From IMG/VR virus record IMGVR_UViG_2703718833_000007, positions 6,191 to 70,190 of that record: 64,000 bases of DNA. The stretch is one strand, 5' to 3'. The notes beneath the pieces were generated by a model. The model was not told where the DNA came from, made no database searches, and saw only the letters and a program-made list of their open reading frames with translations. Below, in pieces: positions 12,133-17,818 of the stretch. This DNA comes from a virus. Lineage: Duplodnaviria; Heunggongvirae; Uroviricota; Caudoviricetes. Numbering within the stretch: position 1 is the stretch's first letter; each line of letters opens with the position of its first letter. The translations under genes and the position numbers were made by a program.

Positions 12133-12311
12133 AAAACGAAGTTAAAGATCTGCAAATAGATATTCAGTGCGATGAGCATGATTTAGCTACAGTCAGAAAA
12201 ATCCAGGCTTTTCATATGCGAGAATTGCTTGCATTGAAAGAGCTTGAGAGGAAGTTAGTCCAGTCTATTTCTGATCGTAAACGCCTTATTGCTCGTTACG
12301 GGGGCAAATAA
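12129..12311 (+). CDS. Hypothetical protein
   Basis: Track ORF 60 aa between rusA and Q. Confidence 0.4.
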   Translation: MKNEVKDLQIDIQCDEHDLATVRKIQAFHMRELLALKELERKLVQSISDRKRLIARYGGK

Positions 12312-13033
12312 TGAATCTGGAGTCAATTCTTAAATTCCACTTCCCAAAATCACCGCATTTGTCAGATGAAAGTCGTGGCACGTCACCGGACGCGCTTAAT
12401 ACTACGGATGCGCTAACTGCCGCTGGTATGGCGCAATCGCGCGTAGAGCTTGGTTATAGCGCTTTTTTAGGGAAGATGGAACTATCACAAGCCGAAAAGC
12501 ACAGGGCCGTAGTTTTGCTTACAGAGCGTTTAAGAGCTATGGCAAAAGATTATAAATACGTTATGGAACTGGACGAGGTGCGACGAAATGATCTCATTAT
12601 TCTTGTTGCCGTTTTCGCATTTCGGGATTATTGCCAGAGTGCCGCGACGGAAAAAACTTGTATGGAGTGCGGCGGATATAAATTTACGTTTGACGAGTAT
12701 GGGGAAAAACACCTTTGCAAAAAATGCAAGGGGCATGGGAAAGTTCTTAATCATTGCAAACAATGCAAGGGCCGTGGAGAAGTGCCTGATAAAGCAGCCA
12801 GCGAAGCGGCGGAAATGCCCGTGTTCAAAACGTGCCAGCATTGCGGCGGGCGCGGGTACTCGCGTTTCCCTGTAGATCTTGTCCGGCAGGCGGTTAATCA
12901 GCTTGTCTTTCCTGTAAGCCGATCAACATGGTGGAAGAAATACCGTGCTTTCTATGAAGACGCCATTGCTGAATTGTTCAAAGAAGAGGCGCGGGCTGAT
13001 AACGAAATTAAACGAGTGACGCGGGGTGAATGA
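12311..13033 (+). CDS. Late-gene antiterminator Q (lambda Q family)
   Basis: Track ORF 240 aa; N-terminus MNLESILKFHFPKSPHLSDESRGTSPDALNTTDALTAAGMAQS and zinc-finger region closely parallel remembered lambda Q. Confidence 0.85.
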   Translation: MNLESILKFHFPKSPHLSDESRGTSPDALNTTDALTAAGMAQSRVELGYSAFLGKMELSQAEKHRAVVLLTERLRAMAKDYKYVMELDEVRRNDLIILVAVFAFRDYCQSAATEKTCMECGGYKFTFDEYGEKHLCKKCKGHGKVLNHCKQCKGRGEVPDKAASEAAEMPVFKTCQHCGGRGYSRFPVDLVRQAVNQLVFPVSRSTWWKKYRAFYEDAIAELFKEEARADNEIKRVTRGE

Positions 13034-13233
13034 TGGATAAGCTGGAAATAAACGATAAGTTTGCCGTTATCTTGTTCGAAGATAAAACGGGCGGTGCTTG
13101 GTGTAAGAAAGTTACTGGTGCTGAAGCGCGTTTAATATTGGGCATGGCAAGCGCATTAAACGAAGGTGAATTGCCAGCCGTGCCAGTTAAGCCAGTACAT
13201 ATTTACGGACGGAGCAAAGACAATGAAGCCTAA
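13030..13233 (+). CDS. Hypothetical protein
   Basis: Track ORF 67 aa; ATGA overlap with Q stop. Confidence 0.4.
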   Translation: MMDKLEINDKFAVILFEDKTGGAWCKKVTGAEARLILGMASALNEGELPAVPVKPVHIYGRSKDNEA

Positions 13234-13492
13234 ATTAAAAGAACATCTATTTGCAAAGCTGGTTAATGACCTGACGTTATCAGCGCGGTTGTGCGGTGAT
13301 ACGCAACAATTGAGGGCATGGATAGCAAGGGATTTAAAAAAATATATTGAGCCTGGCGGGCCTGGTGACGAAATGACTATGGACAAGGCCATCAATCGCC
13401 GTTCGGCTGAATGGTCAGTGAGTAACACCGGATTAACCGGATACATTGAAGGCTATAACGACTGTTTACAGGATCATAGCGATGGCAAATAA
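13223..13492 (+). CDS. Hypothetical protein
   Basis: Track ORF 13166-13492 trimmed to MKPKLKEHLF. Confidence 0.35.
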   Translation: MKPKLKEHLFAKLVNDLTLSARLCGDTQQLRAWIARDLKKYIEPGGPGDEMTMDKAINRRSAEWSVSNTGLTGYIEGYNDCLQDHSDGK

Positions 13493-13781
13493 ACACTTAC
13501 ATTTGAATTTAAAAGGAGAATACTTCCACGCTATCAGGGCGGGGAAGAAGGTCGAGGAATACCGGCTTTATAATGACTATTGGCGCAAACGCCTTGAGGG
13601 GCGCGACTATACAAGATTGATTCTTAAATGGGGATACCCTGCAAACGACGATAAGGAAAGAATCCTTGTTCTCCCTTACATGGGGTACAAGATAAAGACT
13701 ATTCAGCATCCTTTGTTCGGTGATGAACCTGTTAAGGTTTTTGCTATCCACTGCGATATTTATTGGCAATATAGGTTTTAG
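13482..13781 (+). CDS. Hypothetical protein, possibly ASCH-like
   Basis: Track ORF 13446-13781; LHLNLKGEYFHAIRAGKKVEEYRL resembles ASCH beta-barrel N-terminus. Confidence 0.35.
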   Translation: MANKHLHLNLKGEYFHAIRAGKKVEEYRLYNDYWRKRLEGRDYTRLILKWGYPANDDKERILVLPYMGYKIKTIQHPLFGDEPVKVFAIHCDIYWQYRF

Positions 13782-13784
13782 AAT

Positions 13785-13997
13785 ATGAAAAGTAACCGCA
13801 AGCGCCTTGTAAGGGCATACGACAAAGCATTAAAGGCTTTTGATGATCTGCGACGCAATAAGCGCCAGCGCCGTAAAGTTGCGCGCATGTTTGTAAGGTG
13901 GTTGCATAATGAGGATTATTTCCTTAATGCTAGGCACATGACGCAGGATGTAGCAGACGCATTGGCTGACGAGAACGTTTATTATATGATGTGGTGA
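13785..13997 (+). CDS. Hypothetical protein
   Basis: Track ORF 70 aa. Confidence 0.35.
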   Translation: MKSNRKRLVRAYDKALKAFDDLRRNKRQRRKVARMFVRWLHNEDYFLNARHMTQDVADALADENVYYMMW

Positions 13998-14001
13998 TAA
14001 T

Positions 14002-14367
14002 ATGCAAATAATCATTGATTATCTTTGCCATGCTGCAAATACAATTTTTGGCATGTATCAACAACCATTCCTTCAGGAATGGGATGATATGCTAAACGAC
14101 ATCCTCGACAAAGGATTAATAATGGATGTTGACGAGCTTACAATCAGATTTAATTATGAGGGTGAAGAATATCTAATTTGGGTTGGTAATAGATGGTATT
14201 CATACGGTCATATTTATTCAATTGGTGGTAAGTTCATTAAAAGAAACCAGGAATTTAGACCGCGCTTCCGCACAATGCGCCGCCTGCATGATCTGCATAT
14301 GAAATTATTCGAAGATCAGGAAGCACGGGAATTATTCAAAATTTACGGGGATAAATCATGGAGCTAA
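14002..14367 (+). CDS. Hypothetical protein
   Basis: Track ORF 121 aa. Confidence 0.4.
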   Translation: MQIIIDYLCHAANTIFGMYQQPFLQEWDDMLNDILDKGLIMDVDELTIRFNYEGEEYLIWVGNRWYSYGHIYSIGGKFIKRNQEFRPRFRTMRRLHDLHMKLFEDQEARELFKIYGDKSWS

Positions 14368-14588
14368 AAATCTGGCAGGCTATCGACGTGGTTGATAACG
14401 AATTATCTATGTTTGCCACTGACGGGAAACGCGTGGTGATCGCTACATGGACACGCAACCACGATGATATTGCTTTTCGTCGCAAGGCGGCGGAATGGCT
14501 TTTCTCTGATGGCGGCTACACGATGAACATCGCACAGCTTGCCAGAATGAAAGATGAAAAGCTGGTGGACAGCTACACAACTGCGTAA
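14358..14588 (+). CDS. Hypothetical protein
   Basis: Track ORF 76 aa. Confidence 0.35.
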   Translation: MELKIWQAIDVVDNELSMFATDGKRVVIATWTRNHDDIAFRRKAAEWLFSDGGYTMNIAQLARMKDEKLVDSYTTA

Positions 14589-14598
14589 TGGGGTAAAT

Positions 14599-16737: not shown

Positions 16738-16750
16738 GCTGTATAAAGTC

Positions 16751-16972
16751 ATGTGTAAAGGTGAATATCATGGCTTTACGGTTGGTTGCGAATACCTGGG
16801 CCACATTGGGTACGGCCCTTTCGGTGAACTGGGAATGAATACGATGGACGACGATGGAGACAGCAGGACGCTTGATCTTGATTCTGATGATTTCGAATAC
16901 ATCCCGCCGGTAACTTACCGCGACGTTGATGATTTCCTGGCTGAACATGAAGACGAGGACGATGATGATTGA
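16751..16972 (+). CDS. Hypothetical protein with poly-acidic C-terminus (start uncertain)
   Basis: Track ORF 16715-16972; ends DDFLAEHEDEDDDD. Confidence 0.3.
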   Translation: MCKGEYHGFTVGCEYLGHIGYGPFGELGMNTMDDDGDSRTLDLDSDDFEYIPPVTYRDVDDFLAEHEDEDDDD

Positions 16973-17162
16973 ATGCCTTATTGCTGTGATTGTTTTGCTT
17001 TATATCGCTGGCGCGATCCTGATGTCATGTTTTATTAAGGTTAGCGGCGCTGAACATGGTGGCCTTGAGATTCCCTTCTGGCCTGTATTGGTTTTTCTCG
17101 CTTTCTTTGATGCTACGGTAGTGCAGATCAAGCGAGCCATTAAGGAGCGCAAGAATGATTGA
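16947..17162 (+). CDS. Hypothetical membrane protein (start uncertain)
   Basis: Track ORF 16926-17162; two hydrophobic segments. Confidence 0.3.
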   Translation: MKTRTMMIECLIAVIVLLYIAGAILMSCFIKVSGAEHGGLEIPFWPVLVFLAFFDATVVQIKRAIKERKND

Positions 17163-17337
17163 AGATGGCATCTATGGTGTAAACCTTATTGAAAACGTAT
17201 TTTACATGGTTGATGGCGATACCGTGACAATCAGCGTAAACGGTGGTGAATATGTAGAGCCATTCTTCAAAACAACAAAGGAAGACATTAAGCGAAGCGT
17301 TGATAAAGGCGTACTATTTAAGGTTGGCGAACTATGA
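17155..17337 (+). CDS. Hypothetical protein
   Basis: Track ORF 60 aa. Confidence 0.3.
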   Translation: MIEDGIYGVNLIENVFYMVDGDTVTISVNGGEYVEPFFKTTKEDIKRSVDKGVLFKVGEL

Positions 17338-17510
17338 GCGAGATAGAAGACGGTATCTATTTTCACAAGGTATTTAACATCGTCTATTTACTTAGAGGTG
17401 AATCGGTGATGATAAAACCTGATGATGATCCGCATTGGGAATCAAGCGACATGGATCGGTGGCATATGCAAACATTGCTAGATAATGGCCTGATATACAG
17501 AAAGCAGTAA
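17334..17510 (+). CDS. Hypothetical protein (58 aa)
   Basis: Own translation MSEIEDGIYFHKVFNIVYLLRGESVMIKPDDDPHWESSDMDRWHMQTLLDNGLIYRKQ; ATGA coupling to upstream ORF. Confidence 0.3.
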   Translation: MSEIEDGIYFHKVFNIVYLLRGESVMIKPDDDPHWESSDMDRWHMQTLLDNGLIYRKQ

Positions 17511-17518
17511 AGCCGTAT

Positions 17519-17547
17519 TTGTGGAGCGAAAACAAACAGATTAAAAT
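17519..17547 (+). promoter_or_regulatory. Candidate late promoter (PR' analogue, presumed target of Q)
   Basis: TTGTGG - 17 nt - TAAAAT, ~30 bp upstream of terminator hairpin and 70 bp upstream of holin start. Confidence 0.35.
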
Positions 17548-17575
17548 ATTCTCTAACAATGCGAAACTGTAACTA

Positions 17576-17597
17576 CCCGGCCCCGCGCCGGGTTTTT
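17576..17597 (+). terminator. Rho-independent terminator (tR' analogue) upstream of lysis genes
   Basis: cccggc-cccgc-gccggg hairpin followed by ttttt. Confidence 0.6.
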
Positions 17598-17617
17598 GCT
17601 TTGTTGGAGGTAAATCT

Positions 17618-17818
17618 ATGTTCGAAAGAATACGGGAGGCGTGTGCGTATGTGGCTGGTGCAGTAACCGCTTTTTTCGGCGCGATAACCATCAATGACGT
17701 TGCCGTCTTTGTGGGTATCTTATCAACCATTGGCACATTTGCCGTTAACTATTACTTCAAATCACAGGAGAACAAGAGGGCGCAAGAGGAACACGACGCA
17801 CGAATGGGGAATAAGTAA
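17618..17818 (+). CDS. Holin (pinholin-like, two TM segments)
   Basis: Track ORF 66 aa; GGAGG SD; two hydrophobic helices and charged C-terminus; first gene of lysis cassette. Confidence 0.7.
   Translation: MFERIREACAYVAGAVTAFFGAITINDVAVFVGILSTIGTFAVNYYFKSQENKRAQEEHDARMGNK

Follow-up and report, generated by a model that had tools for sequence, protein, structure and literature searches.

Q antiterminators and their sites are a textbook example of a gene and its target that are inherited together as one module, and annotation habit puts the late promoter right after the Q gene. In the canonical cassette the transcription unit of the late promoter PR' directly adjoins Q (PMC9388147). Phage lambda reads TTGACT-17 nucleotides (nt)-TAAATT-TGACTC-AACGAT, P22 reads as lambda with its terminator ~30 nt later, and ES18 has TTTACA-17 nt-TAATAT-CGTTTCT-AACAGT from ~45 nt after its Q stop codon. 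Here we analyzed a stretch of 64,000 nt from a Caudoviricetes virus (positions 6,191 to 70,190 of the IMG/VR record IMGVR_UViG_2703718833_000007), which we call the window and whose own positions are used throughout. Its Q gene ends at 13033, while the -10 hexamer of the candidate late promoter lies at 17542, ~4.5 kb away and just upstream of the holin gene. Our analysis suggests that the Q-dependent late switch is probably split in this phage, with Q among the early genes and its cognate site 4.5 kb downstream, before the holin.

The closest described phages are those of the mEp021 type. The window carries an mEp021-type (mEpimmI) Escherichia coli prophage, as judged from its similarity to and synteny with mEp021 and mEp554, its Gp17 N-like protein and its nut sites. 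The region has 84-91% DNA identity to Escherichia phages mEp554, mEp044, mEp010, mEp013, mEp515, mEp021 and MagusPhagus, and shares with the group the synteny, Gp17, Q, the t5 hairpin and the holin. The stretch 17400-17900 has no match above 95% identity among 5,426 complete E. coli genomes. According to the accessible part of PMC11893012, the mEpimmI phages are a Nus-dependent, non-lambdoid group of coliphages that require an N-like protein (Gp17) and a Q-lambda-like protein, and their frequency in human faeces equals that of lambdoid phages. The annotated gene order in mEp021 is Q (gp37), eight hypothetical genes, the terminator TERM_5 and the holin. The family, its Q annotation and t5 are already public; the accessible part of the group's description gives neither the location of the late promoter nor its separation from Q. 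Likewise, we found no description of the split between Q and its site, of a module lacking a -35 or of the embedded terminator described below in the literature accessible to us, which did not include a 2023 paper on Gp17 and terminators.

By sequence, the Q gene encodes an antiterminator of the Q-lambda family, for which antitermination activity is predicted. It matches Pfam PF03589 'Antitermination protein Q' with 100 bits at a cutoff of 26.7 (E=8e-29), PHROG 127 (E=1.5e-78) and, among solved structures, the lambda Q chains 7ubm/4mo1 (E=9e-39). Its residues 1-114 and 148-238 can be aligned with residues 1-114 and 117-207 of lambda Q, and the aligned regions comprise the N-terminal nozzle segment, the zinc-ribbon arm (CxxC..CxxC) and the C-terminal helix-turn-helix body. 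The intervening 33 residues (115-147; window positions 12653-12751) are an insertion in the arm with two extra CxxC motifs, bringing the number of DnaJ-like CxxCxGxG motifs in the arm to four; the extra pair is common to ES18-type Q proteins but absent from lambda Q, whose zinc-ribbon arm spans residues 114-152 (PMC9388147). The extra pair probably forms a second zinc site and lengthens the arm that contacts DNA and sigma. The cysteines are invariant across six lineages; among 46 distinct Q sequences 446 of 726 alignment columns are invariant, and all lambda Q motifs are retained. The counterpart of the lambda Q recognition helix reads 'TWW..YR' in the window and in the lineages with Q proteins 76% and 49% identical to it, but not in lambda or ES18, and this sharing across lineages with a split layout is only suggestive. 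Homologues of NinG and RusA lie upstream of Q, and its TGA stop (13031-13033) overlaps the ATG of the next ORF (open reading frame) at 13030. A sequence-only reading of this DNA had already called the gene lambda-Q-like, with its end at 13033 and the ATGA overlap, and had put the holin behind 17519-17597; the domain, structure and holin matches agree with all of this.

The non-coding block of ~90 nt lies directly before the holin gene, in the interval 17511-17617 that separates the last array ORF (ending at 17510) from the holin start (17618). Its layout is TTGTGG(17519)-17 nt-TAAAAT(17542)-ATTCTCT-AACAAT(17555)-15 nt-ACCCGGCCCCGCGCCGGGT(17575-17593)-TTTTTGCTTTG-GGAGG-ATG. The AACAAT repeat stands 7 nt after the -10, in the place and form of the lambda AACGAT, and the candidate PR' is predicted to start at A17555 (or T17554). 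The hairpin at 17575-17593 gives the strongest intrinsic terminator call in 11.5-20 kb (-19.7 kcal/mol, z=-3.0), and the terminator at 17575-17604 is identical to the mEp021 hairpin annotated as TERM_5. In the accessible part of PMC11893012, t5 is listed among the experimentally demonstrated terminators of mEp021. The first late genes are those of the lysis cassette (17618-19280). Compared by sequence, the block has the PR'-pause-terminator layout of its Q family.

We compared the region across 45 IMG/VR loci whose Q is 82-97% identical to that of the window, together with E. coli prophages and sequenced phages (~50 loci). In 50 of 50 loci the Q stop codon touches or overlaps the start codon of the following ORF. 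Behind the same Q the first ORF is found in at least four unrelated versions, the DNA downstream of Q varies in a codon-like manner, and none of the 50 loci has a conserved promoter or conserved non-coding DNA directly after Q. On this evidence no Q-specific promoter or binding site can be placed there. This backs the earlier view that there is no room for PR' or qut after Q, although lack of room alone is no proof, as one relative has a last array ORF that runs into the -10 hexamer of the block itself and stops there. Q stop and holin start lie 2.0 to 6.8 kb apart in 48-51 loci and are never adjacent, so that the comparison with related prophages called for by the sequence-only reading finds the split layout common to the whole family.

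The block before the holin behaves differently from the DNA behind Q. From AAACAA to the holin ATG its mean pairwise identity is 0.92 (46 distinct combinations). The Q and holin genes both reach 0.88, whereas the 75 nt that immediately precede the block reach 0.57. Within the family no variation is seen in TAAAAT, in AACAAT, in the hairpin stems or in most of the spacer, and AAACAA-ACAGAT is (nearly) invariant among 31 distinct sequences. The block is kept where the last array ORF belongs to another family, and also in two loci where the holin has been swapped for one of 57% identity (L024, L044). A 28-nt pattern taken from the block has a single match in each of 46 IMG/VR contigs, which are essentially the contigs that have this Q.

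The separation extends to deeper lineages. A protein search gave Q relatives at 76%, 49% and 45% identity; a profile search of genome contigs with the Q alignment returned, among the matches listed, mostly lambda-like fragments and no intermediates. The gene order in all three lineages is NinG, RusA, a 61-aa (amino acid) ORF at the place of the 60-aa ORF of the window, Q, and a run of small ORFs starting from the Q stop. In the 76% and 49% lineages this run is followed by the holin; the contig of the 45% lineage (L198) ends inside the array. The 76% lineage reads AAACAAAAAGAT-TAAAAT-ATCCTC-AACAAT followed by the same hairpin, and the 49% lineage AAACAATATCGGG-TATAAT-TCCCTC-AATAAT, ~20 nt, a 10-bp hairpin, a T-run and the holin, without a -35. 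AAACAA stands 12-13 nt upstream of the -10 in both lineages as well. Because the layout and AAACAA survive where other sequence has changed, the block looks as a functional site co-evolving with its Q protein should look.

Outside this family the module adjoins Q. ES18, SEN22 and 54 relatives from IMG/VR have the closest Q proteins outside the family (31-42% identity; 40-41% for ES18), with the same arm insertion. Their initial transcribed region (TAATAT-CGTTTCT-AACAGT in ES18) is very similar to that of the window (TAAAAT-ATTCTCT-AACAAT), whereas their module lies no more than ~250 nt from Q and the sequences read have a good -35 (TTTACA). A strong intrinsic terminator lies within ~250 nt of the Q stop in 54 of the 54 distant loci. 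In 38 of them TANNNT-N6-7-AAC[AG]NT is found within ~65 nt of the Q stop; 14 of the other 16 read with near variants (AATGAT, AACCGT or 5-nt spacing), and the last two share the terminator with one. The motif TANNNT-N6-7-AACRNT is expected by chance ~1 time per 16 kb per strand, and its 8 matches in the window fit this expectation, so the match count alone is uninformative. Adjacency in lambda, P22, ES18 and all 54 distant loci bears out what had been said of known lambdoid phages, and among the loci compared the separation of Q from its module is, by sequence, limited to the mEpimmI family.

Set against lambda and P22, the window has a homologous Q, a -10 followed after 6-7 nt by an AAC(G/A)AT repeat, an intrinsic terminator and the lysis genes, with the terminator ~20-30 nt after the pause repeat as in P22. 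Of the canonical cassette it thus has a pause-like element and a terminator followed by the late genes, but not the adjacency to Q: Q is ~45 nt from the site in lambda and P22 and 4.5 kb from it here (2.0-6.8 kb in the relatives). Lambda also differs in its -35 (TTGACT), of which the window's family has no conserved counterpart, in its spacer (TTGAATAAAATTGGG, against AAACAA.. in the window) and in the lack of the second CxxC pair in the Q arm.

The small ORFs between Q and the holin form a gapless array. The ~4.3 kb with 17 small ORFs counted earlier correspond to 18 ORFs and a distance of 4.5 kb from Q to the site, the size range of 58-141 aa being correct. Sixteen of the 18 match PHROG families of unknown function, and neither Pfam nor NCBIfam gives a name to any array protein above threshold. 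The ASCH-like ORF suspected in the sequence-only reading can be recognized in the ORF at 13482-13781, which has a sub-threshold ASCH match (E=0.016) and 87% identity to a RefSeq protein annotated 'ASCH domain-containing protein'; otherwise the array is as unrecognized as that reading held. Arrays in relatives contain 8-28 ORFs drawn from 28 families, ~12 of which occur in at least 90% of 45 distinct arrays; the array is therefore part core and part variable and not random cargo. The eight ORFs of mEp021 are homologous to the window ORFs starting at 14358, 14599, 14829, 15061, 15272, 15788, 16156 and 17334, and four families (14002, 14599, 14829, 15272) recur in the 49% lineage. A database search with the core ORF 14599-14829 gave only close copies in E. 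coli prophages, and no known Rfam RNA family was found within 12-18 kb. The only members of related arrays with a family assignment are a Lar restriction-alleviation family gene directly after Q (L198, 9188-9415), a PNKP-like HAD phosphatase (L192, 11533-12072) and a PAPS-reductase-like gene (L196, 14058-14813). These hint at the array as a candidate locus for host takeover or anti-defence.

An intrinsic-terminator hairpin is embedded in the array, in the 5' end of the core ORF 14599-14829. It folds with -19 kcal/mol (z=-4.6). Although the codons on either side vary, a 38-nt stretch at the hairpin is unchanged in 51 of 52 family loci. The mEp021 copy of the hairpin lies ~260 nt from the Q stop and carries no annotation. 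We looked for a promoter upstream of it, and no -10-like hexamer (TANNNT) precedes it in the window.

The early operon upstream of Q provides the likely source of transcription through the array. Antitermination by Gp17 is reported for mEp021 in the accessible part of PMC11893012, which also describes nutR2 at the position corresponding to the site at 10870-10903, 1.4 kb upstream of Q in the window. This nutR2-like site could be where the N-like factor is loaded so that polymerase reads through Q and the array. We propose that Gp17, loaded at the nut-like sites at 3064 and 10870, would keep the early rightward transcript elongating across ninG, rusA, Q and then, with no gap, the 18 translationally coupled ORFs of the array. 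Since the same gapless transcript would cover the array, its ORFs should be delayed-early genes co-expressed with Q and not late genes. The invariant internal terminator at 14617-14642 would make the distal half of the array dependent on N-type antitermination by Gp17. Without Q, polymerase starting at about A17555 would make a leader of ~45-50 nt and halt at t5, after pausing through a sigma70 contact with AACAAT. Q would act in trans, as in lambda, at the AAACAA-containing spacer and make the paused polymerase terminator-resistant, and the modified polymerase would pass t5 into the holin, lysozyme, Rz/Rz1 and structural genes. Such a separation is not forbidden because Q is a diffusible protein. 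A further terminator-like hairpin of the early operon (CGTTGCAAATGCTGCGGCG followed by T8) lies within the NinG gene at 11153-11179, and mEp021 has it too.

Several observations weigh against a split switch with a self-sufficient promoter before the holin. Scored as a bare sigma70 consensus, 17519-17547 ranks only 91 of 128,000 positions, and a promoter scan and a rough sigma70 matrix gave several better-scoring strings inside array ORFs. The promoter call rests on conservation and layout, because scoring alone did not single out this site. Accordingly, the promoter prediction suggested by the sequence-only reading for 17519-17560 gave an unremarkable consensus score, the support coming from conservation and layout; and its statement that 17519-17597 holds the only PR'-like promoter and terminator pair is right in that this is the sole element of lambda-type layout with the strongest terminator, but too strong given the score rank, the second terminator at 14617-14642 and the weak string at 13038-13056. 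The family has no conserved -35 or extended -10, and the 49% lineage has no -35: the -35 region reads TTGTRG (TTGTAG) in some relatives and TCGCGC in others, and these variants do not correlate with the Q clades of 240 and 242 aa. As a plain sigma70 promoter the block would be weak, unlike the strong constitutive lambda PR'. On the side of the array, mEp021 gp41 (L001, 7426-7674), the homologue of the window ORF 15061-15309, is labelled 'virion structural protein' on the strength of mass spectrometry, a possible sign of late expression. This is weak evidence because the early SSB carries a similar annotation, and gp41 may be an abundant protein that co-purifies.

The missing -35 leads to the thought that the block is a Q-loading site plus terminator without an autonomous promoter, or a promoter that needs Q as an activator, which we consider unlikely. 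Polymerase arriving from the early operon would then pause at TAAAAT/AACAAT with sigma70 retained or rebound, and N-type antitermination would be handed over to Q-type on one transcript. That the -35 region is unconserved in every lineage while the sequence is invariant from about -25 onward, which places the left edge of conservation within the would-be promoter, speaks for this, as do the continuity of the array with Q without intergenic gaps and the last array ORF of the 76% lineage (L196), which is translated up to the -10 hexamer and ends inside it. But the spacing of -10, 6-7 nt gap and pause repeat is exactly that of the true promoters of lambda, P22 and ES18. In the systems studied, moreover, Q loading uses promoter-proximal, sigma-dependent pauses, and polymerase modified by N is resistant to pausing and would in any case pass tR'. 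We find it similarly doubtful that the mEpimmI phages have a Q site lacking a -35, kilobases away from a strong promoter, that needs Q to initiate or captures N-antiterminated polymerase.

Two other explanations would take the late promoter or the late control away from the block. One is that the real Q-dependent promoter lies right after Q at 13016-13056, with the array expressed late as stx is and the 14617 hairpin acting as tR'. A lambda-type module match does start 5 nt after the Q stop (13038-13056), a position improbable by chance for a motif expected ~1 time per 16 kb per strand; its AACGAT is the lambda pause element, and mEp021 has the internal hairpin just ~260 nt beyond its Q stop. 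However, the -10-like hexamer varies at synonymous sites (TAAGTT, CAAGTT, TAAACT) with the first T lost, the ORF that contains it is replaced by unrelated ORFs behind the same Q in mEp021 and others, the spacer does not resemble the invariant AAACAA element, the next 1.5 kb of the window contain no terminator, and the 14617 hairpin is not preceded by a TANNNT hexamer. We thus hold this explanation to be highly improbable; the string is probably not functional and may be a relic of an ancestral adjacent PR'. Not much better, and still quite improbable, is the idea that the block is only the terminator of the early operon together with the translation signals of the holin, the late genes being controlled elsewhere and Q having another site or being vestigial. 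Terminator activity is the only function reported experimentally for the block in the accessible part of PMC11893012, and there is another conserved non-coding region with an invariant TTTATAAAAT after the lysis genes (19281-19560). A terminator by itself leaves unexplained why the hairpin is preceded by 45 invariant nt with the same -10/pause-repeat arrangement as known Q sites. Each genome has the block motif once, and Q is intact and well conserved with all the lambda Q motifs kept. A split switch with its promoter in the pre-holin block accommodates these observations, and we consider it the probable explanation.

The array resembles two known arrangements in part. Shiga toxin (Stx) phages also have variable accessory genes between Q and the holin. 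According to the abstracts of PMC6266700 and PMC7547250, their cargo lies downstream of PR'-tR' and is Q-dependent, in line with what the sequence-only reading had said of stx-type cargo. The array of the window, in contrast to such late-operon cargo (morons), is upstream of the only conserved PR'-like block and therefore should be Q-independent. In lambda the nin region, situated between P and Q, is a set of small delayed-early ORFs that are not essential, together with N-dependent terminators. The likeness to the window lies in the packed small ORFs on the early rightward transcript, the NinG and RusA homologues just before them, the embedded terminator, the N-like factor and the nut-like site upstream; the nin region, however, precedes Q, whereas the array follows it, and the array proteins are unrelated to the named Nin proteins.

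If the switch is split as we propose, the two halves of the Q module have stayed matched although 2-7 kb of partly variable genes lie between them. Early and late gene calls in mEpimmI prophages would change accordingly, the array being expected to be Q-independent and to mark a compact set of conserved small early proteins. The family also makes it possible to ask, in a natural setting, whether a strong -35 promoter is required at a Q site. Should the block instead be a site lacking a -35 that needs Q to initiate or captures polymerase from the early operon, it would represent the first natural case in which Q works away from a promoter-proximal pause.

Table 1. Features of the Q locus and of the early antitermination region, in window coordinates.
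Feature	Position	Strand	Basis or remark
nutR1-like site, boxA-like TGCTCTTTA and hairpin GCCGC-TGGAAGT-GCGGC	boxA-like at 3064, just upstream of Gp17 homologue	+	boxA search
N-like early antiterminator (Gp17 homologue)	3157-3447	+	98% identical to mEp021 Gp17
nutR2-like site, boxA TGCTCTTTA and boxB-like hairpin with A-rich loop	10870-10903	+	1.4 kb upstream of Q
60-aa ORF, PHROG 18514, stop overlaps Q start	12129-12311	+	adjoins Q in all lineages
Lambda-family Q antiterminator, long-arm subtype, 240 aa	12311-13033	+	Pfam PF03589, lambda Q structures
Weak PR'/pause-like string GTGACG-16 nt-TAAGCT-GGAAATA-AACGAT	13016-13056	+	regular-expression match, inside first array ORF
Array of 18 small co-oriented ORFs, 58-141 aa	13030-17510	+	overlapping or 0-4 nt apart
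Intrinsic-terminator hairpin AAGCGGG-ATAAAA-CCCGCTT and T6	14617-14642	+	in 5' end of core ORF 14599-14829
Tandem paralogues, both PHROG 15318, stop/start overlapping	17155-17337, 17334-17510	+	last two array ORFs
Possible -35 hexamer TTGTGG	17519-17524	+	unconserved in family
Spacer motif AAACAA-ACAGAT, candidate Q-binding element	17530-17541	+	(nearly) invariant
-10 hexamer TAAAAT of candidate PR'	17542-17547	+	invariant
-10-like repeat AACAAT, candidate sigma70-dependent pause element, +1 to +6	17555-17560	+	invariant
tR'-like intrinsic terminator (mEp021 t5), stem ACCCGG/CCGGGT then TTTTTGCTTTG	17575-17604	+	hairpin and T-run
Holin	17618-17818	+	PF16080
Lysozyme	17820-18311	+	PF00959
Inserted HNH-AP2 endonuclease	18301-18822	+	PF13392
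Rz, with embedded Rz1	18810-19280 (Rz1 19000-19212)	+	PF03245, PF06085

Two HNH_3 endonuclease genes are found in the window, at 10145-10672 and at 18301-18822, the latter also with an AP2 domain. The second one sits between the lysozyme and Rz genes; mEp021 and mEp554 lack it there, and it may therefore be a mobile homing endonuclease. Downstream of the lysis cassette, the region 19281-19560 between Rz/Rz1 and the next gene is conserved and non-coding in ~49 family loci. It contains a GGCGCT..AGCGCC hairpin, an invariant TTTATAAAATTCTG and then an AACGG..CCGTT-TTTT hairpin, with an insertion of ~60 nt in some relatives, and may serve the structural genes as a promoter or a terminator (the area of mEp021 TERM_6). 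Farther to the right, the window has the small RNA FnrS (48560-48677) and the RalA antitoxin small RNA of the Rac prophage region (52987-53165); the right part of the window is therefore E. coli-type chromosome.

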